Positions 3,220 through 39,832 of a DNA stretch of 40,491 bases are shown here, piece by piece. A program made the translations under genes and the position numbers. Under the pieces are notes generated by a model that was not told where the DNA came from, made no database searches, and saw only the letters and a list, made by a program, of their open reading frames with translations. How positions within the stretch are numbered: position 1 is the stretch's first letter; every line of letters begins with the position of its first letter. Source of the DNA: an uncultured Desulfovibrionaceae bacterium (GTDB lineage: Bacteria; Desulfobacterota; Desulfovibrionia; Desulfovibrionales; Desulfovibrionaceae); assembly GCA_964370525.1 (NCBI GenBank), contig CAYJJP010000001.1:1-40491 (forward strand), written 5' to 3'.

Positions 3220-6200
3220 CTATCTTCCTTTAGCCTTATTCGCCATAGCAACAAGTGTTCGATACCCCTCGGCGTTAGAATAATCCCTCGCGCCCTCAAC
3301 CGCGTCGCGCATACTAACCCTCGAACTCGAGGCGGCAGAACCCGTCCCACCAATATCCCTTTGCAACGAATTCATGTTCATGCCGCTACTCTTTAGCCCC
3401 GAAAGAAGTTTCTTCGCCGCCGCCAAATTTGCGTCCGCCGCGCTTGAAGAAGACCCGCTTTTTCTTGAGCTCGATGAAGAACGAGAACCGGAAGAGCTTC
3501 CCCCGGACGAGCTCGAAGACCCTGCGCCGTCGCTGTCTCCTTCCTTTTTCTGATAAGCCTCAACAAAATCATAAAGTGCCGCTTTTTGTTCCGGAGATAA
3601 ACCCGAAAGCGAATTAACATAATCATATATCTGTGCGTTTCTCTCCGCCTTGCTTCCCGTCGTCTTATATCCAAACGTCCAAGCGTCGATATATGTGTCT
3701 TCCGGAATGCCAAGATCCATAGCGCTCGTCATCTTCGCTTTGGTTGTGTCGCTCGTCATAACAAGGTCTTTAATAAGCGCCCTTTGTTGTTCCGGGGTAA
3801 AACCGTCAAAGCTTTCGATATACTCAACCTTGTTGTCGCCGTGCGCCGAAACTCGCGCCTTGAGATACGTGTGGTCTTGCGGAGTTACCCCCATGTCACT
3901 AAACTCCGAAAGCTCGCTCTCGCTATATTTAGATATATCGATTTTTGAAGCGTCCGAAATAACCGAACGCGCTCCGCCTGTTGCTGTTGCCTTGCTGTCT
4001 ATCGGAGAAAACTGCTCCGACCTAGTTCCGTTAACTCCGCTCGAAGCTAAAGCGTTAATCTGCTCTCGGATCTCTTTAATCTGCGCGTTTTTATTCGCCG
4101 CGCTGTCTTTCGTTTCCATAATTGCCCGCTCCTGCTTATAAAGGTCGGACATTTGTCCCGAAATTCTGTTAAGCTCTTTTGCAACCGCCTTTTGTTCCTC
4201 CGTCGCGTTTCGGCTGTTCGACAACTTGTTTGCCTCGTCCCGAAGATCGTAAAACTCGGTAACCGGTTGACTGCTAAACCTCGGGTCTGCCGTAAATTTG
4301 CCCGTAAACGGTTCGACGACTGCGGAATAAGCCGCGTTAGCGGTCGTTTCTTTCCAATCGCCTCCGACGTTTTCCGGCGCCGTTGCTTTTTGTAAAACGT
4401 CCCCGAAATAACCTCCATAGCTGTCGATAAGGTTGTCTATCTTTTTCGGAGATAAATTAAAAAGATTTCCGACCGCTTTCGCCGCCCCCGAAGTCTTAAC
4501 GTCGTATTGCTCGCGCTTCGGTAGGTTCATCATATATGACGGAACAATATCCCCGCCGAAAAAGGTTGTTCCGGGGTCGTCCTCCGAAAACAAAGCCGTT
4601 CGACTAAATGTCGAAACAAGGTTGTCGGTAAACGGGTTAACCGGAGAAAGGTTGGCGCCAAGCATAGCCAAAACCCCGTCAAACTGTCCGTCTATCTCGC
4701 CGTCTTTAACCATCTGAAACGTCCTGTCGACAAGAGAAGTTAAAAACGTTCCGTAAACCCTTTCTTTCGGAAGTTTAAAAAATGTTTTTGGGCTTCCGTT
4801 CTCGTCCTTTTCACCCAAATAATTTGGAATAACATAATAACTGTCGCGCGTATATTGCGAAAGCTCTTCATACCAAGGGTTGTCGCCGTTAATAACGTTT
4901 AAAATAATCTGAGGTATAACGTTCCAAGCGACAACTCGCCCGGCAACCTGCATTGGGTTCTTAATTCCAACTCTTATCGATTTGTCCGCGCCTTGAACCG
5001 AAGCATTAAAAAAAAGTGTAAACGAATTGATAAACCTTGAATAGTTTCCACTTCTCGCGAAATTAACCGTAACGTCGTTAGCGGCAAGAGCCGCCTTTTT
5101 TATTCCTTCAGGTGTCCGTCCATGAACGTCTAAAACGTTCATAAATTCCGCAAGCCTCGGAATACTTTCCGTCATCATAAGTAAGTCGTCAAGATTTCTC
5201 TTAACAACGTTACTTTGCTTATCCGAAAGAGAAGCAACATAACCGCCTTTGACTGAATATGTGCGTTGGTTCATAAGCCCCATACTTTTCGCAAGACGGT
5301 AAATCTCGCCCTTGTTCTGATATTCGCTAATCGCTTTAAAGTAGTTCTCGGCTTTTTTGTTTCCCGTGGCGTGAAGCGCATATGTCTGTGCGTCTCGAAT
5401 AGGGTTAGTCATCAACGCAAAAACCGGGTTATATTGCGTGATAGCGTTTCGAGGAAGACTTAAAAACGCCCTTGACCAGTCCGCCATCTTACTTAAAAAC
5501 GTGTCGTTAATATTTCCGCCTCTAAGATAGTTCAAGCTGTCATAAATCTGCTTTGAAACGTCAATATTAAACTGCTTTCCGTTCTCAAAAACTTGAACCG
5601 TGTAACTGCCGTCGATGTTTTGAACCGCGAAGCTGTCAAACATGTTTTCAATCTCGTCCGTAATGCCAAGTTCTTTCGCCGCGTCTTTCGATACAACAAC
5701 CCCAAGGTTAGCGGACTCCTGCGGATTAGTCCTCGCGAAATCTAAAAGCCCTTTCGTTATCTCGTTCATTCGTTGCGCCTTGATAATCTTATCCGAACGC
5801 TGGATGAATTGGTCCCAAACCGGCAAAAGGTCGGCGTCTCCGCCCTTCGCTTCTTTCGCCAACTGATTTCTAATATTTTTCGACATTCTCTTTCGTTCAT
5901 AATTTGTGCTCATGTCTTGAACGCGATATGTCGGCATATAGTGCGGATAAATGTCAAGCCAATGTTCGTACATGTCTTGGGATATAAGTCCGCTATCGAC
6001 CGCCCAAGCTTTATAAAAAGCTTGATAGCTGTCTTTAAGAAGTTTGTCAAACTCTGCGAGGTTAGGATACTTCTCTAAATACTCGTCGACAATCCGCTGG
6101 CTTTCTGCCGGCGTGTTGTTATTAACCTGTTTTCCATTCGCCGCGCGGTTAATGTTGTGAAGATTGGCGGCGAAATCGTGATAAGCCGCCCATTGTTCTT

Positions 6201-19090: not shown

Positions 19091-21118
19091 TTAAACTCCG
19101 CTCGGCAAAGTCTCTGCCCCAACCTGTGCCGTCTGTTCTGCGCCCTGCAAAACATCTGCGCTCGCCCCGAGTTCGGGCGGTAAACTTTGCCCCTGTTGTA
19201 ACAGCTGTTGTTCCAATGCCTGTTGCTGTCGCTGTTGTTCCAAAAGTGCCTTTTCCTCTTCAACCTTTTTGTCCCAAAATTCAACCATCTCGCCGGCAAA
19301 CGGATACTCCGCTTTTTCTAACAACCGCCAATACATTAACCGTGTTTCCGCGCTTGTCGGGTCTCCGAAACTTCCCGTCGTGTATTCTTCTTTTATCTTG
19401 TTGATATATTCCAAACGGTTGTTTGAATTAATTCCGCTTTCATCAATTGAAAACAAAAAACCGTCCTCGTAGTATAAATTTCCGAACTCGTCATATTCTA
19501 AAAAGTCATATCGAGAAAATATATATGTCTCGTCTTTTCCGTCTTTGCCTTTGGAAACATACTCCCTCGGCTCGTCCGCAAACGCTAAATACATCTGAAA
19601 CATCTTTTTATACAAATCTGCATAAAAATCGTTTTTCAAAACGTGCGTAGCCTTTTGCATACCCGAACTTTGCGCAATCATCGACTCGCGCGCCGCCGCG
19701 CTCTCCCCTGCGTAACTCGCCTTTCCTTGAAACGCGTCGGTAATTCCTAAAACCGCCTTGGCCTGCGCGTACGCCGTCGAAACCGTTGCCGCGTCCCTCG
19801 ATGTGTCGAACTCAAGCGGTATAGCGTTAATCGCCGACATCTGCTCCGGCGAAAGCTCAACCGTTTGAATTATGTTTTTAATTTCAAACGATTTCTCTTG
19901 CGGAACGGTGACTATATATGCCGCATTCTTTGTCTTGTCGGTCGATTTATCCTTTGCAACATTAGCCTCGTGTTGCAATCCCGAGATATCGTCGCAATCC
20001 GAAACCCCAAAAAACTCCCCGTCTTTGACCTCGTTTTTTCTAATCGAAAACGGTATATCTCTAATCTGATAATACGGTATCTTTTGTTTCGTCATCATTG
20101 GGACCTCGTCAATAACCGGAATTCCCCCGACGACCAACTGTTGTCCGAAATCGTCAAAAGCCGGCGCAAGTTCGGTCAAAAGCTCCCCGTCCTTGTCTTT
20201 TGCGATAATATCCGCTTTTATAACGTTACTTTCCGAAACCTGTTTTCCGTCGTCCGCCTCTTTTCGTCCAAAGATATTTATAAAATCCTCTTCAAGCGTT
20301 TCGCCGTCTCGGTCTCTCGAAACAAACTTTCGAGATCCACAGCGACAAACCTTGTCAACGCCCTTCGTCTCTTGACATTTTGCGCAAACTAAATCTTTTC
20401 TTGCATAATAATCGTCATACCGGCAAAGCTCAACATCTCCGACCCAAGCAATATGCCCGATTTTATCCCTGTTTCTGAAAAACATCAAAACAAGCGTTAC
20501 AAGCTCATCCGAATCAAGCTCGTTCCCCTCGGTGCTTCCGCTGTCGTTAAACTGCGAAAACTCGGTATCAACTCCCTCGTCCGAAACGTCCTTTCCGTAG
20601 ATATCAAATATCCGCCGCTTGGTATTATTTCTAACAACAAAGATATAGTCAAGGTTTTCAAGATCGTCGACAAACGGTTGTGGAATAATGTACGACGGCG
20701 ACAAAGCCGTTAGTTTCAATTCTCCTTTAGTGACGGCGGTCGTCTCGGTTGCGTCCCATTCAACAACAACCCCAACCCCCGAGCAAACGTGTGTCAACCG
20801 TTCAAGTTTATCGTTAAGGCTTTTAAACTGTAGCCGGTTAACCTCGCTTTTTAAAAACGCGCTTATCATTCGCGCCCGCTCCTCGTTTTTCTCGTTTTTA
20901 ATGCGCGGAGAAACAAGAGGAAGCGGAACATCGCTTGAAACTTGCGAGTTTATTAATTCTTTTGTAAAGTTATAAACGACTTTGCAATTATCTTTTTTGT
21001 CGTGCGCCGTGATGCCGGTATAGTATTGTTCAAAACGTTTGTTATTGCGTTCTCTCAAACTGTCGTGTTTTTGCTTCGCAAAATTAAATTTAGCTTTTGC
21101 CTCGTCAAAATTATACAA
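19091..21118 (-). CDS. portal protein (by size and position), with inserted CxxC..CxC zinc-ribbon-like segment
   Basis: 675 aa, overlaps the terL stop by 8 nt. Gln-rich C-terminus. CAKCQETKGVDKVCRCG at 20339-20386. Confidence 0.65.
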   Translation of the reverse strand: MYNFDEAKAKFNFAKQKHDSLRERNNKRFEQYYTGITAHDKKDNCKVVYNFTKELINSQVSSDVPLPLVSPRIKNEKNEERARMISAFLKSEVNRLQFKSLNDKLERLTHVCSGVGVVVEWDATETTAVTKGELKLTALSPSYIIPQPFVDDLENLDYIFVVRNNTKRRIFDIYGKDVSDEGVDTEFSQFNDSGSTEGNELDSDELVTLVLMFFRNRDKIGHIAWVGDVELCRYDDYYARKDLVCAKCQETKGVDKVCRCGSRKFVSRDRDGETLEEDFINIFGRKEADDGKQVSESNVIKADIIAKDKDGELLTELAPAFDDFGQQLVVGGIPVIDEVPMMTKQKIPYYQIRDIPFSIRKNEVKDGEFFGVSDCDDISGLQHEANVAKDKSTDKTKNAAYIVTVPQEKSFEIKNIIQTVELSPEQMSAINAIPLEFDTSRDAATVSTAYAQAKAVLGITDAFQGKASYAGESAAARESMIAQSSGMQKATHVLKNDFYADLYKKMFQMYLAFADEPREYVSKGKDGKDETYIFSRYDFLEYDEFGNLYYEDGFLFSIDESGINSNNRLEYINKIKEEYTTGSFGDPTSAETRLMYWRLLEKAEYPFAGEMVEFWDKKVEEEKALLEQQRQQQALEQQLLQQGQSLPPELGASADVLQGAEQTAQVGAETLPSGV

Positions 21119-22934
21119 TCGGAATTCCCCCTAAACGTTTTTCTATTAAATCCTTTTCGGCTCGCTTTGCCTTTCGATAATCCGAAACGATATCTTTTGA
21201 ACATTTAATATATTTTTTCTCTTTTGCTGAATAATAGCTCTGCTGCTCCCTCGCCTTGTGCGCTATCATAGCCGCAAAAATTCTGTCGTCGTGATACCCG
21301 CTCCGAGCGTCCGCTTTTCCTTTTTCGTCAAATTCAAAAGACAAACATTCTCTTAACATTTCGACATCGTTAATCAAATTAATTGAATTCTCGATAACTT
21401 CGCCGAAAAGAGATATAATCATCGGCCGAGTATTCCCGTCCGTCTTCCAACCAAACTGTTTCGTCAAATCCTTTGTAAAATTCTCATATCTTTGACGCAC
21501 ATAAATTTTTGGATATCGAAGCCTTGCAAGTTCCGAGACGACTTGATAATTGAAATTTATCTCGGGTGCAACCAAAGCGTCGTTGTAATATTTGCCGAGA
21601 CAATATAAAATCTCGACAAACGGCGCGCAATCCGCGGATCTTAAATCTATCGCTACGCTTGCGACCTGCGCCCCCGTGTCGTTCCTAAGAACAAACGCCG
21701 TGTAAAAATCCGAACCCTCGCCGGATGTGTCTGCTCCTACAACGTATTTGACGTTTGAAACCGGTCTTTGATAAACTTCGCAAACGCCACCGCTTAAAAC
21801 TTCAAAATCTAAAATAACGTCTCGGCTTTCCGGGTCCTTGTATCTCGGCGCAAAAGATATCGTCTCAAACTTCTTTTTCGATAGTTCTTCAATCCTCGCC
21901 GCTATTTTTTCTATATTGAAAACCGGTCGACCCGAAGACAAAAACGCCTCTTCCGGGTAACATGGATACGCTTGCTTTATCTGATCTTTGTCAATATAAC
22001 CGCTAAATTTATCGTAATACCAAAAAACCTGCTCCGGCACTAACTTCTTTTTATCTAACAGCCAGCGACAACGTTCAAAAATCCAATCTTCGCCCGTCTC
22101 AACCAACTTTAAAAAATCTCGTTTCAAATCTTCGCCCGAAAACTCGATTCGATATTCTTTAGTTCTCCACCACTCAAAAAAACAATTGATGTGCGCCCCG
22201 CTTTGCCACATCGCGTGGTAGTCGTTAAACCCGTTAGCGGTCGATTCGTATATCTTTATTGAATTCGCCGTCAACGCTTCGTTCAAGCCCTCTTGTAGTT
22301 CGGCGATAGGAACAGCCCAAAACGCCGCCTCCGAAGCGTGAAGAAAATTTAAGGTCCTTGAACGCCCAACATTCTTGGTCGCTACCGAACATTGCCAAAA
22401 CGAATTTAATCTATTAAAACGAAGCTCCCGACGGTTGTTATATTTAATTGTCGGGACAATTCTTTCCGGCAACCGGTCAAGAACCGTTTTAGCCTTGTTG
22501 TCAAAAATAACTTCAGCGTTTGCGGAATTGTCCGCAAGAGTTAACCCCTCAAAATTCAAATTTAAAATTGAGCAAGCTAATTGATACGAAGTCATGAAAC
22601 TTGTAAACCCTTGTTGTCGACCCTTTAAGATTAAAAACAAAAGCGAAGAAATTTCGCCCCGAGCAAACTTCCCCTTGTGTTCGTTCAAAATCTTCACAAA
22701 ATCCCGCTGAACGTCGTTTAAAAAAAACGGAACGGTTTTTTTATTCTTGTCAACGATTGTAAAAATCATTTCAATTAATAGCTCGGGGTTTGCCCGAACC
22801 TCCGCCAAAAGCTCCGGCGATCTCGTCAAATATTCCGCAACCGCTAAAACAAACCGCTCGTCATCCGTCGCCCTTGCCCGCTCTGATATAATCTGCTTTG
22901 CGGTTATCGCCCTCGCTTCAACCGTGGTTGTCAT
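21111..22934 (-). CDS. terL: terminase large subunit
   Basis: 607 aa. Walker-A-like LKGRQQGFTS, nuclease-domain pattern VVGADTSGEGSDFYTAFVL and ..GYHDDRIFAAMIA. Follows terS with a 4-nt overlap. Confidence 0.85.
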   Translation of the reverse strand: MTTTVEARAITAKQIISERARATDDERFVLAVAEYLTRSPELLAEVRANPELLIEMIFTIVDKNKKTVPFFLNDVQRDFVKILNEHKGKFARGEISSLLFLILKGRQQGFTSFMTSYQLACSILNLNFEGLTLADNSANAEVIFDNKAKTVLDRLPERIVPTIKYNNRRELRFNRLNSFWQCSVATKNVGRSRTLNFLHASEAAFWAVPIAELQEGLNEALTANSIKIYESTANGFNDYHAMWQSGAHINCFFEWWRTKEYRIEFSGEDLKRDFLKLVETGEDWIFERCRWLLDKKKLVPEQVFWYYDKFSGYIDKDQIKQAYPCYPEEAFLSSGRPVFNIEKIAARIEELSKKKFETISFAPRYKDPESRDVILDFEVLSGGVCEVYQRPVSNVKYVVGADTSGEGSDFYTAFVLRNDTGAQVASVAIDLRSADCAPFVEILYCLGKYYNDALVAPEINFNYQVVSELARLRYPKIYVRQRYENFTKDLTKQFGWKTDGNTRPMIISLFGEVIENSINLINDVEMLRECLSFEFDEKGKADARSGYHDDRIFAAMIAHKAREQQSYYSAKEKKYIKCSKDIVSDYRKAKRAEKDLIEKRLGGIPIV

Positions 22935-23299
22935 TTCCCCGACCCCTCCGAACCGCTACAAATCAAATCTTCAAGTTTAATCGCGCCGTTTAAATTCTGC
23001 GTCGTCTCGTCTTTATAATCAAAATTGTTTTGCAAAGAAAACTTTGCACCTTGAAAAGTTCGGTTACTAAAAAGGGCTTCGGCGGTATATTCTTGACATT
23101 GTAATTTTGCAAGCTGTATTACGTCGCGAAAAGCCTTTTTTTTGTGTTCATAATTTAACAAACTTTGTCGAGATCTAAAACCCAAAGCCAAACAAAGGCC
23201 CTCAACCGTTTTCGGCCGCTTCTGATCTTCCTGTTTTTTAAAATATTTATCAACAATCGCCTGCATCTCGGCCGCCGTCCTATATTTCGCCTTTGCCAA
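22931..23299 (-). CDS. terS: terminase small subunit
   Basis: (M)AKAKYRTAAEMQAIVDKYF..PKTVEGLCLALGFRSRQSLLNYE..AKLQCQEY..GAKFSLQNNFDYKD matches the terS (gp3/P27-like) pattern. TTG at 23299 has GAAAGGG 10 nt upstream; the track start at 23308 is also TTG but is too close to the RBS. Confidence 0.7.
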   Translation of the reverse strand: MAKAKYRTAAEMQAIVDKYFKKQEDQKRPKTVEGLCLALGFRSRQSLLNYEHKKKAFRDVIQLAKLQCQEYTAEALFSNRTFQGAKFSLQNNFDYKDETTQNLNGAIKLEDLICSGSEGSGK

Positions 23300-23517
23300 A
23301 AAAAACAAACCCTTTCAAAAAAAATTAAACAAAGAAAAAAAGCACCTTTTTTGTTAAAAAAATGCTTTTAATCTTTCAAAAAAATATAAACGGGGAGAAC
23401 TTTTGCGCAACTTGTTGTATTAACAATACCGCAGAATTCTAGCCCCCGCGTGTCAAATTCTAAAATTCTATGCAAAACGCATAAAAAAACAACAAAAACA
23501 CCGTCGCCCGCTCCGCT

Positions 23518-23580
23518 CCGGTTCTGCTCCGTGCCGGTTCTGCTCCGTGCCGGTTCTCCCGTGCCGGTTCTCCTGCTCCG
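23518..23580. repeat. GC-rich degenerate tandem repeat (4 units, 16/16/14/17 bp)
   Basis: CCGGTTCTGCTCCGTG x2, then CCGGTTCTCCCGTG and CCGGTTCTCCTGCTCCG. Confidence 0.85.
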
Positions 23581-23613
23581 ACTATAAAATAAAAATCTCG
23601 CCCGCAAGGGCGA
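23581..23613 (-). terminator. intrinsic terminator (minus strand) between the heptamer array and the GC-rich repeats
   Basis: Hairpin TCGCCC-TTGC-GGGCGA (23598-23613) followed on the minus strand by GATTTTTATTTTAT. Confidence 0.55.
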
Positions 23614-23616
23614 ACC

Positions 23617-23714
23617 TTAACTATTAACTATTAACTATTAACTATTAACTATTAATTATTAACTATTAATTATTAACTATTAACTATTAATTATTAACTA
23701 TTAATTATTAACTT
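23617..23714. repeat. 14 tandem heptamers TTAACTA/TTAATTA (98 bp)
   Basis: Read directly: 5 x TTAACTA, then alternating TTAATTA/TTAACTA units, with the last unit TTAACTT. Confidence 0.95.
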
Positions 23715-23925
23715 AAAAAAATATCGTGTATTTTCTTTTTTGTCTGTAAATTAATATTAATTGTGAAAATTATTTCAATCGTGTATTCTCTGAAAAAAAT
23801 TAAATCAAAAATATTAAAAAAATCCGTGTCCAAAATGCAAATATAAAAAAATGCACAAACACCGCGCGCACATCTTGCGCAATATGTAAAAGTTGCAAAA
23901 ATTAAAAATTATTTTGTTTTTTTGC

Positions 23926-23954
23926 TTGACATCTTGTACAAGATATAGTATAAT
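23926..23954 (+). promoter_or_regulatory. consensus sigma-70 promoter of the + strand cassette, with palindromic operator candidates
   Basis: TTGACA (23926-31), 17 bp, TATAAT (23949-54). Palindrome CTTGTACAAG in the spacer (23933-42) and GGTTGACAACC at 23971-81. Confidence 0.7.
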
Positions 23955-24005
23955 TAAATCATAAAATAAAGGTTGACAACCTAAACAGTCAGAAAGGGAA
24001 AAAAC

Positions 24006-24263
24006 ATGTACAGAAAAATTGATAATATTATTTACGACACAAAGTACAGCAAAGAACTTGGAGAAAAAATTTTCAAAAAAAACGGAAAATGGATATCAAC
24101 CCAGACACTATATATTACGCAAAACGAAGATTTTTTTATAGCCGAAATATATGACGATAACGATTGCGATGCACCGACTGATAAGATCAGACCAATAAAC
24201 GAATCAGAAGCAAACAAACTTCTTGAAGAAGGAATTTCGCCATATAAAATAATAGAACTTTAA
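24006..24263 (+). CDS. hypothetical protein ORF A (85 aa), AT-rich
   Basis: ORF track; RBS AAAGGGA. Visibly more AT-rich than the surrounding phage DNA. Confidence 0.6.
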   Translation: MYRKIDNIIYDTKYSKELGEKIFKKNGKWISTQTLYITQNEDFFIAEIYDDNDCDAPTDKIRPINESEANKLLEEGISPYKIIEL

Positions 24264-24421
24264 CCCGCCGACCGAGCGGCGCAAAACAGGCTTTAAGCTC
24301 GGAGCGTTCCGCCCCCAACCGGGCGGAGGTAGCAAAGGTAACCACCACGGCAACGTCTCGAAAAATCGAGCCGGATAAAAAAACTAAGGCGGCGGCCACA
24401 AACGCGGAAAGGGAAGCAACC
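24264..24421 (+). ncRNA. candidate structured RNA / cis-regulatory spacer (158 nt, GC-rich, no start codon)
   Basis: Nested pairings: CCGCCG(24265-70)/CGGCGG(24391-96); CCGAGC/GCTCGG; CCGCCC/GGGCGG; CTCG/CGAG. Contains copy 1 of the 24-nt element. Confidence 0.3.
24337..24360 (+). repeat. 24-nt element, copy R1
   Basis: GGTAACCACCACGGCAACGTCTCG, identical at 24844..24867 and 25150..25173. Confidence 0.95.
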
Positions 24422-24895
24422 ATGACAAACTATCAAATAATCTATAACGAACTCGTTAACCGCGAAATAATGACCGCCGAAAAGCTCGACGGCTTCATAG
24501 CTCGCTACGGTGATATACCGTTCCACACCTTTAAGGAATGGCAAAAACTAGGTCGCCAAGTTAAAAAAGGCGAAAAAGCCTTGTTTAAAGTCTCGCTTTG
24601 GCGATACGGTAAAAAAAATGTTGAAGTCAAAACCCCCGAGGGCGAAGAGAAAACAGAAAAACTCGAAAGATACTATATGCAAGATAGCCATATCTTCTCG
24701 TTCGACCAAACCGAGAAAAAACCGACGTTTAAAACTCGTAACGCGGACGAGCTCCGCGAATATAACAAAATGTTAGCCGACCAGCGCAAGCAAAAAGCCG
24801 AGCAATCGAAGCCGGAGCAAACAAACTTATTTACGCCCGAAAAGGTAACCACCACGGCAACGTCTCGGCAAGCCGAGCCGGCAACGTCTCGGTAA
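24422..24895 (+). CDS. ORF B: ArdC-N-like (ssDNA-binding, anti-restriction-type) domain protein (157 aa)
   Basis: FHTFKEWQKLGRQVKKGEKALFKVSLW resembles the W/F-x-TFKQ..LG..V+KGEK core of the ArdC N-domain (DUF1738). RBS AAAGGGAAG. The C-terminus is encoded by repeat R2. Confidence 0.45.
   Translation: MTNYQIIYNELVNREIMTAEKLDGFIARYGDIPFHTFKEWQKLGRQVKKGEKALFKVSLWRYGKKNVEVKTPEGEEKTEKLERYYMQDSHIFSFDQTEKKPTFKTRNADELREYNKMLADQRKQKAEQSKPEQTNLFTPEKVTTTATSRQAEPATSR
24844..24867 (+). repeat. 24-nt element, copy R2
   Basis: Identical 24-mer. Followed by CTCGG-CAAG-CCGAG and a second GGCAACGTCTCGG (24880-92). Confidence 0.95.
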
Positions 24896-24962
24896 AGCTA
24901 ACCAATTATAAACATATGGGAGGGGCTCCGCTCCTCCCCCCCCCAAAAAAAAGGAGAACACA

Positions 24963-25154
24963 ATGCAAAAAGAATTTAACCCAACAAAATATAAAAACGA
25001 CTTTTCAAAAGAAAAGTACGACCGAGTCATCATAACCGTTCCCAAAGGCGAGCGCGAACGAATAAAAGCCCTCGCCGAAGCGCAAAACCTCTCGGTAAAC
25101 GCCTTATACGCAAAAGCCCTCGCCCATTTTGAACAAACCGCTCTTAAACGGTAA
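24963..25154 (+). CDS. ORF C: ribbon-helix-helix (Arc/CopG-like) DNA-binding protein (63 aa)
   Basis: YDRVIITVPKGERERIKALAEAQNLSVNALYAKALAHF follows a beta-strand, helix, helix RHH pattern. RBS AAAGGAG. Confidence 0.6.
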   Translation: MQKEFNPTKYKNDFSKEKYDRVIITVPKGERERIKALAEAQNLSVNALYAKALAHFEQTALKR

Positions 25155-25173
25155 CCACCACGGCAACGTCTCG
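25150..25173 (+). repeat. 24-nt element, copy R3
   Basis: Identical 24-mer that overlaps the ORF C stop codon. Followed by two hairpins (25170-85 and 25192-209). Confidence 0.95.
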
Positions 25174-25213
25174 GCAAGCCGAGCCGTCAACGGCTCGATA
25201 AATCGAGCCATAT

Positions 25214-25243
25214 AAAAAAAGAACGCTTTTCGCGTTCTTTTTT
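25214..25243. terminator. bidirectional intrinsic terminator between convergent units
   Basis: AAAAAAAGAACGC-TTTTC-GCGTTCTTTTTT. Confidence 0.75.
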
Positions 25244-25257
25244 GCGTTTTATATTGT

Positions 25258-25536
25258 CTACTCCGAAAGGCTTTGAACAAAATCCGAAACCTTAACCGTC
25301 GTTAACCGTTTTTTTGCTAACTGATATCGAAACCATTCTCGCCCCGAAATAAAATATCTGCGCTTTATCATCTCGACGTCCGAATAGAACCAGTCTTTAA
25401 CTATCTGCCTTTCAAAACACCCGCAACCCTCGCAACCCTGCGAAGCATATAAAACTTGAATTAAATCGTCTCCCGTCAAAACTTCGTTTTTTAAATCCTC
25501 GTTAACCTCCGCTAAAATCTCCGCGTTACTATACAT
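25258..25536 (-). CDS. hypothetical protein (92 aa from ATG 25536)
   Basis: AAAGGTG RBS 8-9 nt upstream of ATG 25536; CEGCGC motif. Confidence 0.5.
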   Translation of the reverse strand: MYSNAEILAEVNEDLKNEVLTGDDLIQVLYASQGCEGCGCFERQIVKDWFYSDVEMIKRRYFISGREWFRYQLAKKRLTTVKVSDFVQSLSE

Positions 25537-25605
25537 AAAAAAAACACCTTTCAAAAATTTTTTAAACTTGTCAACATTATATCATATTTTTTACTTTTTA
25601 AATAG

Positions 25606-25998
25606 CTACAAAAGGCTGTCAAGCCGTTCAAAAAACAAAATACGCCTCGAGTAAAACTCCGCCCTCGAATAACAAACAACGCCAAAAAGCGAAACAATAA
25701 TATCGTAGCTATTTCCCGACACAAGTCCCTTTAAAAATAAATCGGTTTGCGACGGAAAAGAAAACTTCGCCGCCTCCTCAATAGCGTCAATCTTCTTGCT
25801 ATACCTCAAAGCGCGTTCCGCCGAATTGGCGGTCGGATCTCCTATAGCGTTTTTTACCTTGGCCCCCGAAAATCCGTTCCCCGAAATCTCGTAAAAACTC
25901 AACACAAGTTTTTTCATCTCCTTGTATTGTCTTAAAATGCTTTCAAGTTCGTTTTGTCGAGCCCTTGATAACCCTGTCTTTGGCTTATAGTTACGCAT
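25606..25998 (-). CDS. RinA-family-like late transcriptional activator
   Basis: ATG 25998 with a GGAGG RBS. RARQNELESILRQYKEMKK .. AIGDPTANSAERAL .. KIDAIEEA .. SRAEFYSRR parallels the RinA layout. Confidence 0.55.
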   Translation of the reverse strand: MRNYKPKTGLSRARQNELESILRQYKEMKKLVLSFYEISGNGFSGAKVKNAIGDPTANSAERALRYSKKIDAIEEAAKFSFPSQTDLFLKGLVSGNSYDIIVSLFGVVCYSRAEFYSRRILFFERLDSLL

Positions 25999-26002
25999 TT
26001 TT

Positions 26003-26194
26003 TTAAACCTCCAAATCAGTATAACAAGTGCAAAAGCCTTTCCCGTTATCAATAAAGCTCAAATTTCCTTTGCTGTCCGCAATAACCGTTGCGTTCCGAC
26101 AAACCACCTCCTCGTCTTTATTCAAACTGTCTTCAACAATTTTGTTGTATGCCGCCTCGGGCAAAAATAAAAAATCGTGAGAAAACAAAAACAC
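26003..26194 (-). CDS. hypothetical protein (63 aa)
   Basis: ORF track; packed between the Rep-like and RinA-like genes. Confidence 0.4.
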   Translation of the reverse strand: MFLFSHDFLFLPEAAYNKIVEDSLNKDEEVVCRNATVIADSKGNLSFIDNGKGFCTCYTDLEV

Positions 26195-26210: not shown

Positions 26211-27002
26211 CTACATGTTCAGTTTTAAAAGCCTAACAAAAACGTTATATCCCGAGATATCGCTATAAATAACCTCGGGGTCTTGCGCTAAATAATAACC
26301 CGGATACCTTTCGCTCCAGTATTGTTTGTCAAAACAAAGCCCCCTCGCGAGTTCCTCAAGTTTTCCGCCCCCCGCCTTGTCGGTTGGTGCGTGAACTTTC
26401 GGCATAGTAAGGTTTTTAGACTGTTTCCAACGCCGTTGTCCGCTTTGCGTTTTTGTGATATAAATCCGTAACCGCTGAATGTTATCCGCGTGAATATTAA
26501 GGCGAGACCCAACAACAAACCCAAACGAAACAAAATTCTTGTCAACCGTTATCCCCCAAAGACTTTCGACAACCTCGGGAGTAACAAACCAAGGCAAAAC
26601 GGCGTGCTGATGACATCTAACCGCTTCGCCGTCCTTGTCCTTCGTTTCGGTCACCGCGATATATTTAAACTCATCTAACCGATCTCGATAAAAATATCTA
26701 AGTCTACGAATAAAGTTATCTAAATCTCGTTCACCCTGTTTTTTTGTTTCGGGTTCGTGTCCTTCGGAATAAGTAAGAGTATAAAACCACCCGCGCTTTT
26801 CGGTGAAATTTGCAAAAAGCAAACGGTCAAAATGTCTAACAGCGTTTTTTTCATTCAACCGAACTTGCGATTCGGTACTTGCGTTAAATTTTTTCGCCCT
26901 TGCCTTTTTCGCCTGCTTGGTCGAAACTTTAAAAAACTCTAAATCAATACAAACGCCGTTTCCGCATGTCGTTTTTTTCTCGCGTGTGTAACTGTTAGCC
27001 AT
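26211..27002 (-). CDS. HUH-superfamily rolling-circle replication initiator (Rep)-like protein
   Basis: 263 aa. Motif I FYTLTY, FIRRLR..KYIAVTE, HUH motif RCHQHAVL, Tyr motif RIYITKTQ..RRWKQSKNL. Confidence 0.6.
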   Translation of the reverse strand: MANSYTREKKTTCGNGVCIDLEFFKVSTKQAKKARAKKFNASTESQVRLNEKNAVRHFDRLLFANFTEKRGWFYTLTYSEGHEPETKKQGERDLDNFIRRLRYFYRDRLDEFKYIAVTETKDKDGEAVRCHQHAVLPWFVTPEVVESLWGITVDKNFVSFGFVVGSRLNIHADNIQRLRIYITKTQSGQRRWKQSKNLTMPKVHAPTDKAGGGKLEELARGLCFDKQYWSERYPGYYLAQDPEVIYSDISGYNVFVRLLKLNM

Positions 27003-28090: not shown

Positions 28091-28423
28091 TCAATCATAG
28101 CTTGTTGATTTATCAAACTCAATGTTTCGTTTAACCCCCGAAATTTCCTCAACGCAAAAATTCTTAACGCGAAGACAAATTCGACAATCTGAACAAACGC
28201 TCTCGTTTGCAAGCTCAACGCCCCCAAACGAAACCCGACACAAAACAACCGGTCGCCTATCTTTGCAAACGTCGCAAACATCTTTAAACTTTCCTTTTTT
28301 GCGTTTAATTTTAAAAGTCTCAAACCAAGTCTTAAAACAAGGCTTCCTTTGCTCAAGTCCTCTTTCCCTCTCCATAGTCCAAAACGCAACCGCCGCTTCA
28401 TACGGCTTTAAGTTCTTTTTCAA
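28091..28423 (-). CDS. Cys-rich zinc-finger protein (110 aa)
   Basis: TTG start with AAAGGAGG 6 nt upstream. CDVCKD..C..CSDCRIC. Confidence 0.5.
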   Translation of the reverse strand: MKKNLKPYEAAVAFWTMERERGLEQRKPCFKTWFETFKIKRKKGKFKDVCDVCKDRRPVVLCRVSFGGVELANESVCSDCRICLRVKNFCVEEISGVKRNIEFDKSTSYD

Positions 28424-29357
28424 AACAATCCTCCTTTCGTTGTTTTTCCGCTAAAACTCTCTCTAAAACATTAACTAAACCAACAAGCGTTGCGTTACAA
28501 TCTTTAGAGCGCGGAGCTCGTCCGACTTTTCTTGCCGCAACCGGCGGCATATTATCAAAAAAATTCCCGTCGCCGATAAGTTCTCTAACAACGTCTAAAC
28601 GATCGCTCTTATACGTGTTATAAACCTTACCCCTTACGCTACAAACCGAAGTATTTAAAGCGTCCGCTATTGCCGTATAACCGGCCCCGTTTTTAATCAT
28701 GTTTCCTAAAATATCAATTTCAGCCTTTGACCAATTAAAATAAGATTCGGGCGCCAAAGGCCGAGCCGTTAACCCTAAACACTGTACACGTCGACGAATA
28801 GCCCCTTCGCTTCGATTTAACAATAATCTAAGGTCCTTATATGAATATTTAAACTCAGACAAATACTTTCTAAGCCTGTCGTCCTCGAACTTTGTCCAAC
28901 GATCCTCTCTAAATCTCTCGACAACATCTTGCTTCCGTTGGGCGTCAACCCAAGCCGGTTCTTTACCAAGCGCGCCGACCGGAAACCTGTCCCAAGGTAT
29001 TAAAGTTCTATTTACCTTCGCAAATCGCCAAAACTCCGAAATAGAAACTGTACAAAAAGTTTCGTTATATACCTTTTTATACCTAACCGAAAGCCCTTTT
29101 GAGATCCAACGCTCCTTAACGTCGCCCGAGGTATACCCAAAAACGGCAACAAGAACGCTATTTAAAGTAGGATTGTCGCAATTCGACAAAAAGCTCCCAA
29201 GACCTAACCTATTTACCTTAAGACGTATAGCCATTTCGCTCCGATTTAGCTTTAAACAAATCCCCCTAAGAGATATCCTCCCCCAAAGCTCCGAAAGAAG
29301 TTCTTCCTCCTCTTGTGTCCAATGCCTTTTCTTTTTTTTACTTTTAACAAGTTCCAT
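28398..29357 (-). CDS. DNA-binding protein with three Myb/SANT-like repeats
   Basis: HWTQEEEELLSELW, RWTKFEDDRLRKYL, NWSKAEIDILGNMI, each followed by an HTH-like ..S..A+R.R segment. Confidence 0.45.
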   Translation of the reverse strand: MELVKSKKKKRHWTQEEEELLSELWGRISLRGICLKLNRSEMAIRLKVNRLGLGSFLSNCDNPTLNSVLVAVFGYTSGDVKERWISKGLSVRYKKVYNETFCTVSISEFWRFAKVNRTLIPWDRFPVGALGKEPAWVDAQRKQDVVERFREDRWTKFEDDRLRKYLSEFKYSYKDLRLLLNRSEGAIRRRVQCLGLTARPLAPESYFNWSKAEIDILGNMIKNGAGYTAIADALNTSVCSVRGKVYNTYKSDRLDVVRELIGDGNFFDNMPPVAARKVGRAPRSKDCNATLVGLVNVLERVLAEKQRKEDCFEKELKAV

Positions 29358-30900: not shown

Positions 30901-31219
30901 CTCCGCTCCCCTCTACAAAATCAACAAATTTATAACCTTCGCCTCCTAACTCTAAATCTTTGTTCTTTGAGACTATAGACTTAACATAGAACCCCTTACT
31001 GTCCGGCGGTTCGGGTAAAGGCTGCCAATGCGTAACCCTATAAAAGTCACTACAATATTTCATACAAACCAAATCATAATCACGCCAATTTTCCCCGTCA
31101 AAAAACAAAACCGTTGAAAGGCTAGCCCCTTCAATAAAAACGATAAACTGAAAGGGTTCTCCGTATTCGTGCTGAAATACTTCAGGCAACCTATCTTTAA
31201 CGCTTATCCAATTACTCAT
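30887..31219 (-). CDS. DUF551 domain protein
   Basis: WISVKDRLPE .. VTHWQPLPEPP signature. Confidence 0.7.
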   Translation of the reverse strand: MSNWISVKDRLPEVFQHEYGEPFQFIVFIEGASLSTVLFFDGENWRDYDLVCMKYCSDFYRVTHWQPLPEPPDSKGFYVKSIVSKNKDLELGGEGYKFVDFVEGSGDVRF

Positions 31220-31416
31220 CTCCGCCCCCCAAATATCAAAACCACACCGGCCAAAAGCGAAACCGCAAAAAACAAAAATATCAAAACCTCAACAATCATA
31301 CCTTCGCCCTCGATTTTAACCAATTTTCCGTCCGCCTCCTCTGCGGTCGCCCCATTTTTCGTCAAAACCTCGAAAAACCTTGTCGTGTCCTGCTCGTTTA
31401 AGCTAATCATATCCAT
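31216..31416 (-). CDS. small membrane protein (66 aa)
   Basis: C-terminal TM segment VLIFLFFAVSLLAGVVLIF. Confidence 0.45.
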   Translation of the reverse strand: MDMISLNEQDTTRFFEVLTKNGATAEEADGKLVKIEGEGMIVEVLIFLFFAVSLLAGVVLIFGGRR

Positions 31417-31640
31417 TCTATCTCCCTCTCCGTTAAAAGCACGTGTGCCGGCATTAAAAGCCCCGCCGTTATCTTTGAAACCGTTTTAAGACTAACGTTT
31501 CTATACTTCGTCTCAATCTGCTGTATATACGTCTCGTCAAGCCCCGACCGTTCCGCAAGCTCCGCCTGCGTAATCCCCTGCCGAAGCCTTTCTTCTCGAA
31601 CGTTCTCGCCAAATATCTGTTTAAGCGGTATCTTATACAT
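31407..31640 (-). CDS. XRE-family HTH protein (77 aa)
   Basis: ATG 31640 with a GGAAAGGA RBS. VREERLRQGITQAELAERSGLDETYIQQIE. Confidence 0.7.
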   Translation of the reverse strand: MYKIPLKQIFGENVREERLRQGITQAELAERSGLDETYIQQIETKYRNVSLKTVSKITAGLLMPAHVLLTEREIEWI

Positions 31641-37562: not shown

Positions 37563-37880
37563 ATGTTTTATGACAACTTTATAATAGAGTGTAATAAAAA
37601 CAACATTTCCCCAACTGCGGCAGCTCTTAAAATTGGATTTCCGCGCTCAATCGTAACAATTTGGAAAAACGGCTCTAAGCCTAGAGACGCTAACTTAAAA
37701 AAAATAGCCGATTATTTCGGCGTTACCGTTGATTATCTTTTAAGGGAAAAAGAAAACGCCGCCCAACTGGACGGCATTGAGACTACGACGGACAAGCTCA
37801 TAAAAGCGGTTGCTTCTCTTTCTGAAGATAAACAAAAACAACTTCTTGAGATGATACGTCTTTTTGAAGACAACCGATAG
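37563..37880 (+). CDS. XRE-family HTH, CI-like repressor
   Basis: 105 aa. NISPTAAALKIGFPRSIVTIWKNG..ANLKKIADYFGVTVDYLL. Co-oriented with the integrase. Confidence 0.7.
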   Translation: MFYDNFIIECNKNNISPTAAALKIGFPRSIVTIWKNGSKPRDANLKKIADYFGVTVDYLLREKENAAQLDGIETTTDKLIKAVASLSEDKQKQLLEMIRLFEDNR

Positions 37881-38651: not shown

Positions 38652-39785
38652 ATGCCCATATACAAAATGTCCGGCAAGCGTGACGGGCTCTCGCAATACC
38701 GTGTGCGAATAAACTATATCGACGCGCTCGGCAAAAAAAAACAGCTCGACCGTATAGCCTACGGCAAAGCCGAAGCCTCGCTCCTCGAGGCGGAACTAAA
38801 AAAGCAAGTCTCGGCAAAAGATATCGCAACAACAATGTCGATAGCCGAGCTATACGAAGAATACATAAAAAACAAAAAAAGCGAGGTTCGAGAGACCTCG
38901 CTTTTAAAAACGATCGCAACCTTTAAAAATCATATACTCCCCATATTAAAAGACGTTAAACTAAACAACATAAAACCCCAAACGCTCCAAAACTGGAAAT
39001 CGGAAGTTCTTAAAAAAAATTTAGCCTTTGTTTCAACAAAAAATACTTATAAGGAGCTTTCCGCCCTTTTTAATTACGCTGTAAGACTACAGTATATAAA
39101 CCAAAACCCGCTCCGTCTTGTCGGAAACTTTAAAGATCCCTATTTTAAGCCGGAACAAGAAAAAATCTGCTACTACACGGCCGACCAATTTAAAGCGTTT
39201 ATATCCGTTGCAAAAATCGAAGCCCAAAAACAAAACAACCTAACCGCTTGGGGTTATTACGTTTTTTTTAACATAGCGTTTTACACCGGAATGCGAAAAG
39301 GCGAGATAAACGCGCTTCGATGGAGCGACCTCGAGGGCGATATAATTTATATAAAAAAAAGTATAACCCAAAAAATAAAGGGAAAACCAAACGTCGAAAC
39401 TCCCCCAAAAAACAAATCAAGCTATCGCCAAATAGCTGCCCCGCTCCCCCTGCTTAAAATCCTAACAGAACACAAACAGCGCCAAGCAAAATTAAGCTTA
39501 AGCGCAAACGCCCTAATCTGTGGCGGCGAAAACCCTCTCCGAGACACAACGCTTTCAAACAAAAATATCGAATTTGCAAAACTCGCCAATATCCCAACAA
39601 TAAGAATCCACGACTTTCGCCACTCCCACGCCTCTCTTCTGATTAATGAGGGCATAAACATAAAAGAGATCTCTCGCCGCCTTGGCCACGCCAAAGTAGA
39701 AATAACGTGGAACACCTATGGCCACCTATACCCCCAAGAAGAAACCAAAGTTTTAAATATTTTAAACAATATATCAATAGATTAA
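38652..39785 (+). CDS. int: tyrosine recombinase / phage integrase
   Basis: 377 aa. ..TGMRKGEINALRW.. and IRIHDFRHSHASLLINEGI..ISRRLGHAKVEITWNTYGHLY (R..HxxR..Y catalytic motifs). Adjacent to attR. Confidence 0.9.
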   Translation: MPIYKMSGKRDGLSQYRVRINYIDALGKKKQLDRIAYGKAEASLLEAELKKQVSAKDIATTMSIAELYEEYIKNKKSEVRETSLLKTIATFKNHILPILKDVKLNNIKPQTLQNWKSEVLKKNLAFVSTKNTYKELSALFNYAVRLQYINQNPLRLVGNFKDPYFKPEQEKICYYTADQFKAFISVAKIEAQKQNNLTAWGYYVFFNIAFYTGMRKGEINALRWSDLEGDIIYIKKSITQKIKGKPNVETPPKNKSSYRQIAAPLPLLKILTEHKQRQAKLSLSANALICGGENPLRDTTLSNKNIEFAKLANIPTIRIHDFRHSHASLLINEGINIKEISRRLGHAKVEITWNTYGHLYPQEETKVLNILNNISID

Positions 39786-39808: not shown

Positions 39809-39832
39809 TACACGCTTTTTACACGCTTTTTC
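39809..39832 (+). repeat. 24-bp arm repeat, copy 2
   Basis: TACACGCTTTTTACACGCTTTTTC, 120 bp inside attR and identical to 1079..1102. Confidence 0.8.

Follow-up and report, generated by a model that had tools for sequence, protein, structure and literature searches.

The block at positions 23926 to 25243 of contig CAYJJP010000001.1 (assembly GCA_964370525.1, an uncultured Desulfovibrionaceae bacterium) is a compact operon within a prophage and carries three small open reading frames (ORFs)—ORF A, ORF B and ORF C—on the plus strand. The window considered throughout is the whole stretch of 40,491 nucleotides (nt) of this contig. A preliminary description of this DNA had outlined three plus-strand ORFs, a promoter, a spacer and a terminator, and all of these were found where it had placed them. 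In addition, the block contains a pistol self-cleaving ribozyme motif between ORF A and ORF B and three copies of a repeat, termed repeat R. By class, the block belongs to the pistol ribozymes, to the ArdC-N family—not to full ArdC—and probably to the ribbon-helix-helix (RHH) repressors, and to no other class. Its features, with lengths in base pairs (bp) or amino acids (aa), are as follows:

23874-23883: possible weak second operator CTTGCGCAAT, fitting CTTGNNCAAK
23926-23954, plus strand: sigma-70-type promoter, TTGACA-17 nt-TATAAT, 12/12 consensus
23931-23944: predicted operator, a 14-bp perfect palindrome ATCTTGTACAAGAT with the core TCTTGTACAAGA, in the -35/-10 spacer
23971-23981: palindrome GGTTGACAACC in the 5' leader, without comparative support
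24006-24263, plus strand: ORF A, 85 aa, starting with ATG and preceded by a GAAAGGG Shine-Dalgarno (SD) sequence
24266-24334, plus strand: pistol self-cleaving ribozyme (Rfam RF02679)
24334-24374, plus strand: repeat R copy 1, a 24-mer and the hairpin CUCGA-AAAA-UCGAG, directly 3' of the ribozyme
24422-24895, plus strand: ORF B, 157 aa, the last 18 of which are encoded by repeat R copy 2
24841-24912, plus strand: repeat R copy 2, a 24-mer, the hairpin CUCGG-CAAG-CCGAG and a degenerate second subunit, spanning the ORF B stop
24918-24938, plus strand: GC-rich stem-loop GGGAGGGGC-UCC-GCUCCUCCC in the ORF B–ORF C intergenic region, in which an SD-like GGGAGGGG pairs with an anti-SD-like CUCCUCCC
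24963-25154, plus strand: ORF C, 63 aa, putative RHH protein and probable autorepressor
25147-25211, plus strand: repeat R copy 3, a 24-mer, a hairpin and a 7-bp hairpin GGCUCGA-UAAA-UCGAGCC, with the ORF C stop inside
25215-25243: bidirectional intrinsic terminator with a 12-bp stem, an A-run before and a T-run after

The promoter had been called perfect, and it is the sole perfect sigma-70 consensus on either strand of the 40.5-kb contig. The bidirectional terminator holds up equally well: its 12-bp stem is flanked by the A-run and the T-run, the fold z-score of 25140-25250 is -5.0, and 15 nt separate it from the stop of the convergent minus-strand ORF 25258-25554. Across the block, and nowhere else in the window, the AT skew is strongly positive, a bias that fits plus-strand transcription. 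Two palindromes had been described as operator-like. The first, CTTGTACAAG at 23933-23942 in the promoter spacer, is present and in fact longer—the 14-bp ATCTTGTACAAGAT—and is one of six 14-bp palindromes in the window. The second, GGTTGACAACC, is also present, but its operator-like status does not stand: palindromes of 10-11 bp occur about three times per kb, and approximately 9-10% of 160-bp stretches hold at least two, so that GGTTGACAACC is not beyond chance. Being neither significant nor conserved, it was rejected as an operator. The possible weak site upstream of the promoter is part of the 12-mer TCTTGCGCAATA (23873-23884), which has three mismatches to the operator core and resembles a site in locus L052, CTTGTGCAAT; chance alone is expected to yield matches of this quality.

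The region between ORF A and ORF B (24264-24421) had been taken for a 158-nt GC-rich non-coding spacer. Length and composition are as described (53-54% GC compared with 27-34% in ORF A), but the spacer is not featureless: it holds the pistol ribozyme and repeat R copy 1, and the unit would therefore be one that is processed at the RNA level. With 65.0 bits against a gathering threshold of 34.5 and an E-value of 5e-11 to 9e-10, the match to RF02679 spans the entire model (positions 1-68 of 68). Stem P1 (24266-69/24278-81; 4 bp) and stem P3 (24307-14/24321-28; 8 bp including one G-U) are intact, and stem P2 (24289-92/24331-34) features three Watson-Crick pairs and an outer G.A mismatch. The conserved nucleotides AAA, A, C, UUA, GC, GAGCGU and GGU all match the consensus. 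The pseudoknot joins the P1 loop with the P2–P3 junction by pairing CCGAG (24272-24276) with CUCGG (24298-24302). Its variable triplet pairs at three of three positions, as it does in 51 of 51 distinct viral pistols, among which 17 triplet combinations occur, and the covariance-model alignment shows it to be maintained by compensatory changes. The pseudoknot does not enter the covariance-model score, so this pairing is independent evidence for a pistol. The class is reportedly the subject of Weinberg et al. 2015. Pistol ribozymes were described by Harris et al. 2015 and cut at a G-U linker (PMC4604425). A GT linker occurs at the cleavage site in 44 of 60 viral pistols, and with the G-U linker present here the cut should fall at G24329^U24330. 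In common with its class, the element has all three stems, a pseudoknot between the P1 loop and the junction, the conserved blocks AAA and GAGCGU and a linker of two nucleotides; its context, Firmicute-type phage DNA beside small hypothetical genes, is likewise the one reported for pistols. It differs in the mismatch of P2 and in its setting—a compact autoregulated operon, in which it is followed by a unique repeat element.

Pistols also occur in other loci with ORF B relatives. Among 80 IMG/VR loci encoding such relatives, three (L051, L052 and L053) carry a pistol of 67.6-67.7 bits; in all three, the pistol comes right behind the stop of a small leader ORF and precedes the ORF B relative, whose strand it shares. 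The leader ORFs of these three operons bear no kinship to ORF A: that of L052 is phrog_32772, and that of L053 is a 51-aa ORF. Because the leader gene varies among relatives, the leader slot suggests itself as a swappable effector position. No ribozyme reaches the gathering threshold in L049, a close relative of L053; none of the Rfam ribozymes was found in the nine terL-related loci scanned, and no ribozyme was found in the loci of ORF C homologues. A general association of pistols with ArdcN was rejected, as among 74 IMG/VR pistol loci the two occur together solely in L051, L052 and L053. As a separate observation, L052 contains a twister-sister ribozyme (3818-3897, plus strand; 79 bits) in the same operon as its pistol (2089-2155) and its ORF B relative, so that one phage accessory operon carries two self-cleaving ribozyme classes.

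The position of the pistol relative to the preceding gene follows a pattern that was observed in viral pistols at large, as sampled in 74 IMG/VR loci (L129-L202) retrieved by the pistol core pattern. Of 60 viral pistols, 32 have an ORF of 40 aa or more whose end falls between -1 and +8 nt relative to P1; random positions satisfy this in 2.9% of cases. The 5' slack has a median of 5 nt, and the next start codon follows at a median distance of 81 nt. The pistol of the window fits with 2 nt after the ORF A stop and 87 nt to the next start. A statement of this pattern was not found in the literature examined, and this marked preference of viral pistols for a place right beside an upstream stop codon is an observation that can be reused for other loci. 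The pattern suggests a coupling of translation termination with ribozyme folding. Taken further, the pistol might act as a translation-gated RNA switch: with just 2 nt between the ORF A stop and P1, a terminating ribosome would unfold P1 and the pseudoknot, and cleavage would report upstream translation and set the ratio of leader protein to ArdC-like protein and repressor, with the R hairpins defining and stabilizing the processed ends. This extension is speculative and decidedly unlikely to hold; if it did, translation gating would be the first physiological role for pistol ribozymes. The role of self-cleaving ribozymes in bacteria and phages—pistol, twister, twister-sister, hatchet and hammerhead—is largely unknown (PMC6765202, PMC8782182).

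ORF C belongs to phrog_13890 (E 3e-12). Its matches to RHH profiles are weak: RHH_5 (E 0.019) and Arc (E 0.077), both under the Pfam cut-offs, and AmrZ in the PDB (E 0.055). The homologue P0157 carries PF07878, and in the family alignment two helical segments come after a conserved YDR-hIhxVPKGE strand. Four homologues were found, and the genomic contexts of three (P0154-P0156) were fetched as loci L224-L230. In these loci, two or three copies of TCTTGTACAAGA lie immediately upstream of each ORF C homologue, and in L227-L230 three further copies lie downstream of the RHH gene. Copies are located as follows, and also in L225, L227, L229 and L230:

L224, 1294-1360: TCTTGTACAAGA copies
L226, 2608-2676: TCTTGTACAAGA copies
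L228, 2861-2929 and 3326-3393: TCTTGTACAAGA copies

The exact 10-mer core occurs four times elsewhere, in the other approximately 1.25 Mb of fetched DNA. Because the palindrome recurs beside every homologue with a fetched locus, ORF C is very probably a repressor that recognizes TCTTGTACAAGA; at its own promoter, it would cover the spacer between the -35 and -10 hexamers. This phylogenetic footprint of TCTTGTACAAGA lends strong support to the suggestion that the last gene of the block regulates its own operon through the spacer palindrome.

The surroundings of ORF C homologues feature ArdC-type genes. In L227-L229, P0156 is divergent from a full-length ardC gene with TCTTGTACAAGA in between, and in L230 it is divergent from the gene for a 183-aa ArdcN-bearing product with TCTTGTACAAGA beside it. 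The pairing of an RHH gene with an ArdC-type gene recurs in three lineages. A distant ORF C relative (45% identity) lies divergent and upstream of the pistol operon in L051 and L052, where three degenerate CTTGNNCAAG sites are found in the promoter region between the two. The conserved pairing of this RHH family with TCTTGTACAAGA, linked to ArdC-type genes, can be reused elsewhere. Other repeated palindromes are seen between a divergent RHH gene and an ArdC-N operon in L049 (CATAGTACTATG, 3-4 copies, 2020-2125) and in L053 (GTGTTATCATG-like repeats, 1790-1860): the architecture is the same, with a different operator specificity. Within the block, the intergenic stem-loop 24918-24938 lies just upstream of the real ribosome-binding site of ORF C.

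The description of ORF B as ArdC-N-like is borne out at both the sequence and the fold level. The match to Pfam ArdcN (DUF1738) reaches 30.5 bits against a cut-off of 22.6 (E 4.5e-7), and ORF B also matches phrog_25027 and phrog_7245, the 'anti-restriction protein'. The family comprises 402 representatives, many of which are stand-alone proteins of approximately 100 aa; this family of stand-alone ArdC-N proteins is of use beyond the present locus. An AlphaFold2 model based on the family alignment has a predicted local distance difference test (pLDDT) value of 90, with a low-confidence tail from aa 130. In Foldseek, its top match is ArdC of R388 (6i89; E 7.8e-4), followed by 6sna and then the beta-hairpin domain (BHD) of Rad4. 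The single-stranded DNA (ssDNA)-binding domain of ArdC is likewise related to the Rad4 beta-hairpin domains, and the residues F92 and Q96, invariant in the ORF B family (IFSFDQ), align with the ArdC 'squiggle' VFNADQ (PMC7213743). ORF B ends at 157 aa and gives no match to a protease profile in Pfam. As the protease activity of R388 ArdC is dispensable for anti-restriction (PMC7213743), a DNA-protecting role is plausible: ORF B would be of the ssDNA-binding type and would help protect phage DNA from restriction.

In comparison with ArdC of R388/pSa (6I89, 6SNA; PMC7213743), ORF B shares the N-domain fold with its Rad4 BHD2-like beta-hairpin and the F...Q 'squiggle' motif, and relatives of ORF C sit beside full-length ardC genes. 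It differs by its size—157 aa, of which approximately 100 are conserved—and by the lack of the C-terminal metalloprotease of the HExxH type (MPTase-PolyVal/SprT-like), and it resides in a prophage rather than in a plasmid leading region. The likeness to plasmid leading-region islands that had been drawn is accordingly no more than an analogy, since the element is a prophage and not a conjugative plasmid with an oriT.

Neighbours of ORF B relatives link the small ArdC-N family to DNA-processing functions: in L049 (2971-3885) and L052 (4079-4987) an approximately 300-aa phrog_19458 'primase' protein follows the ORF B relative, and in the protein P0003 the two are fused. ORF B could hence be considered an accessory ssDNA-binding protein for replication or recombination, which would make the cassette a DNA-metabolism module. 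Besides these 'primase' neighbours, the Rep gene (26211-27002) lies 1 kb off, and plasmids often encode ArdcN domains in fusion with primases (PMC7213743). However, the block runs against the replication and late genes with a constitutive-type promoter, a repressor and a terminator of its own; it is absent from 48 relatives, which replicate without it; and the PHROG relatives of ORF B are annotated as anti-restriction. A replication role is on these grounds unlikely, and an anti-restriction function, as suggested by the ArdC-N domain, is favoured.

ORF A had been described as AT-rich and without recognizable domain, and remains so: its GC content is low, and it has no match in Pfam, PHROGs, NCBIfam or PADLOC. 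By a rough hand estimate, an open frame of 85 codons is unlikely to arise by chance at approximately 30% GC. No homologue was found among 5.8 billion proteins; ORF A, ORF B, ORF C and terL each form a singleton cluster at 90% identity among 15 billion proteins; no IMG/VR locus was recovered with ORF A or ORF B alone; and the cassette gave no blastn match to GenBank phages. The AlphaFold2 single-sequence model of ORF A (pLDDT 53) is too poor for a fold search, and its one PDB sequence match, a designed repeat protein, was disregarded.

The block had also been likened to an operon of anti-CRISPR (Acr) and Acr-associated (Aca) genes. In acr-aca operons, anti-CRISPR genes are accompanied by an autorepressor that binds inverted repeats at the promoter. 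Like them, the present operon has a strong promoter overlapped by a palindromic operator, opens with a small variable gene and closes with the gene of a small DNA-binding protein, the probable repressor. To our knowledge, the described Aca families are helix-turn-helix (HTH) proteins, whereas ORF C is probably of the RHH type. Further differences are the internal ribozyme and the ArdC-type gene, and no Acr, Aca or defence profile matches any of the ORFs in Pfam, PHROGs, NCBIfam and PADLOC, none of which is a dedicated Acr library. Within these libraries, the proposed match finds no backing at the level of homology. A reading as an acr-aca-type anti-defence operon, with ORF A as effector and the ribozyme as an inactive relic, would agree with the strong promoter, the small proteins, the terminal repressor and the promoter operator; ORF A without homologue and the differing leader genes of L052 and L053 resemble the behaviour of Acr genes. 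Against a relic stands the pistol match, which is full-length, 30 bits over threshold and has an intact pseudoknot, and together with the probable RHH nature of ORF C and the lack of profile matches in the libraries searched this makes such an operon very improbable. What can be retained is a resemblance: the unit is akin to an acr-aca operon in its regulatory logic and to a ribozyme insulator in its RNA logic.

The features of the block are best accounted for by a self-regulated moron operon, the mRNA of which would be cut by the pistol between ORF A and the ArdC-like ORF B; we put the probability of this model at roughly 70%. The consensus promoter would drive a tricistronic ORF A–ORF B–ORF C RNA up to the strong terminator, and ORF C would bind TCTTGTACAAGA between the -35 and -10 hexamers and repress its own operon. 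The pistol, beginning 2 nt after the ORF A stop, would fold and cut the nascent RNA at the predicted site. The 5' product would be an ORF A mRNA with a 2',3'-cyclic phosphate end behind the folded ribozyme; the 3' product would be an ORF B–ORF C mRNA with a 5'-OH start and a 92-nt leader containing repeat R copy 1. The stability and translation of the ORF A mRNA would become uncoupled from those of the ORF B–ORF C mRNA and, because the repressor is encoded by the 3' fragment alone, the cut would determine how much ORF A is made relative to the repressor. ORF B, finally, would most likely bind ssDNA and help the phage DNA escape restriction. Promoter firing and feedback by ORF C are proposed from sequence and comparative evidence and cleavage from the strong motif match; the later steps are reasoned from these.

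RiboJ-type insulators and the glmS–RNase J1 system, as generally known, also place a ribozyme between a promoter-proximal segment and a downstream cistron and yield a defined 5'-OH end, and RiboJ-type insulators uncouple the downstream mRNA from its upstream context. The present case differs as a natural element of another ribozyme class with no known ligand control. In Bacillus, the glmS mRNA cleaved by its ribozyme carries a 5'-OH and is degraded in the RNase J1 pathway. The 5'-OH mRNA of the block could be either stabilized or, by analogy with glmS, degraded, and this ambiguity is one of several points that count against the proposed operon model. At the RNA level, ribozyme activity in the operon mRNA is predicted from the motif alone; P2 holds just three Watson-Crick pairs next to its G.A mismatch, as do 12 of 57 viral pistols with three of four pairs, i.e., about a fifth of natural examples; and the repeats R are left unexplained. 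The promoter contains one perfect operator copy compared with two or three per promoter in the homologous loci. ORF B covers the C-terminal half of the ArdcN profile alone (positions 60-122 of 123), its Foldseek template modelling (TM) scores are low (0.24-0.28), it lacks the second domain of ArdC, the C-terminal metalloprotease, and no function-tested small protein consisting of ArdC-N only was found in the literature. Lastly, an ORF B relative is present in 3 of the 74 viral pistol loci—the same contigs L051-L053—and a pistol in 3 of the first 20 loci of ORF B relatives; with so few shared loci, the pistol–ArdcN pairing is lineage-specific and not a general rule. If the ribozyme were inactive, the block would be an ordinary autoregulated moron. 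As a natural test system the locus is very compact, with a single promoter, a single terminator, three small genes, a ribozyme placed where two cistrons meet and an operator that can be named.

Repeat R consists of an exact 24-mer, GGTAACCACCACGGCAACGTCTCG, and a 5-bp hairpin with an NAAR loop, and its three copies are read in three different frames. The hairpin occurs in five subunits: two with CUCGA/UCGAG, two with CUCGG/CCGAG—a compensatory exchange—and one degenerate. The repeat matches no Rfam family at E<=10, is found nowhere else in the contig, and its exact 24-mer is absent from the IMG/VR and metagenome contigs searched; a fuzzy search of 128 related loci gave nothing. A metagenome scan for the degenerate hairpin subunit returned 21 hits, a number close to the chance level estimated by hand, on contigs of 46-69% GC and without R context, and was set aside. 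Cleavage of R in trans by the pistol was rejected as well, as the flanks of R lack complementarity to the 5' strands of P3 and P2. R may serve at the RNA level to define or stabilize ends, may be bound by a protein, or may be a scar left when the cassette was assembled.

The last of these possibilities can be extended to the operon as a whole, which would then be a recent mosaic with the three R copies as DNA-level scars or sites of assembly by recombination. The exact 24-mers stand at three cistron boundaries in three frames. Near the 3' ends of ORF A (24197-24224) and ORF B (24804-24831) a 28-nt stretch is 82% identical, and this stretch may be the trace of a duplicated 3'-flank module that included repeat R. 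A rearranged gene order is moreover seen in L051/L052, where the ORF C relative precedes the operon in divergent orientation rather than closing it. On the other hand, pairing in the R hairpins is kept through an exchange of A-U to G-C across subunits, which points to selection on structure, and no related copy exists in the sequences searched that would show mobility. Assembly by recombination is therefore a possibility to be kept in mind, if a doubtful one, next to the preferred model of a ribozyme-cut, self-regulated operon.

The moron character of the block, proposed because it separates two genes that normally are neighbours, is strengthened by its distribution: no relatives of ORF A, ORF B or ORF C were found in 48 terL-related loci, and being absent from all of them the cassette behaves as a moron. 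Like phage morons, it is counter-oriented, carries its own promoter and terminator, is missing from relatives and is located between regulatory/replication genes and terS; unlike them, it brings its own repressor and an RNA-processing element. It had been expected that the upstream gene—a putative RinA-like activator—and terS would be adjacent where the cassette is missing. The 148-aa gene is indeed found directly upstream of terS in L001, the sole relative with a recognizable homologue. The name 'RinA-like' has no profile support, as the protein has no match in Pfam or NCBIfam and falls into phrog_11237, to which no function is assigned. In the region 0.5-4 kb upstream of terL, the loci L007, L008, L009, L012, L037/L048 and L038 show either different counter-oriented small-ORF blocks upstream of terS or gaps of 0.5-1.1 kb in which no ORF reaches 55 aa. 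This place in the genome thus appears to be a hot spot that tolerates cargo. A tRNA lies upstream of terL in two loci: L003 (6952-7022, just upstream of terS) and L038 (3209-3281).

The prophage of approximately 38.7 kb that hosts the block fills most of the window and is identified as such by its integrase, att repeats, terminase and structural genes. It is bounded by a 24-nt direct repeat, the two copies of which are probably the attL and attR cores. The closest terL relatives (43-49% identity) come from prophages in metagenome-assembled genomes of gut Clostridia and Bacilli and from IMG/VR contigs. Between 1105 and 37348, all homology-supported genes outside the block are on the minus strand, as had been claimed, with strand ambiguity for three ORF pairs (1511-2032, 28122-28454 and 31169-31489). 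The surrounding features are:

960-1036: tRNA-Pro, adjoining the prophage
1079-1102 and 39809-39832: 24-nt exact direct repeat TACACGCTTTTTACACGCTTTTTC, the left copy 43 nt downstream of tRNA-Pro and the right copy just beyond the integrase gene
21111-22934: terL
22931-23308: terS
25606-26052: upstream protein, 148 aa (phrog_11237)
26211-27002: Rep, rolling-circle-type replication initiator (phrog_3584, REP_ORF2-G2P), 1 kb from the block
37563-37880: HTH repressor, at the right end of the prophage
38652-39785: tyrosine integrase, at the right end of the prophage

The region between terS and the promoter of the block is rich in repeats. It features a GC-rich 16-nt tandem repeat in four copies (23510-23571), a 7-nt TTAACTA array of 13.9 copies with 12% GC (23617-23713) and, between the two, a minus-strand intrinsic terminator (23597-23614). 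The region may represent a DNA element of the pac/ori type or else a small RNA rich in repeats.

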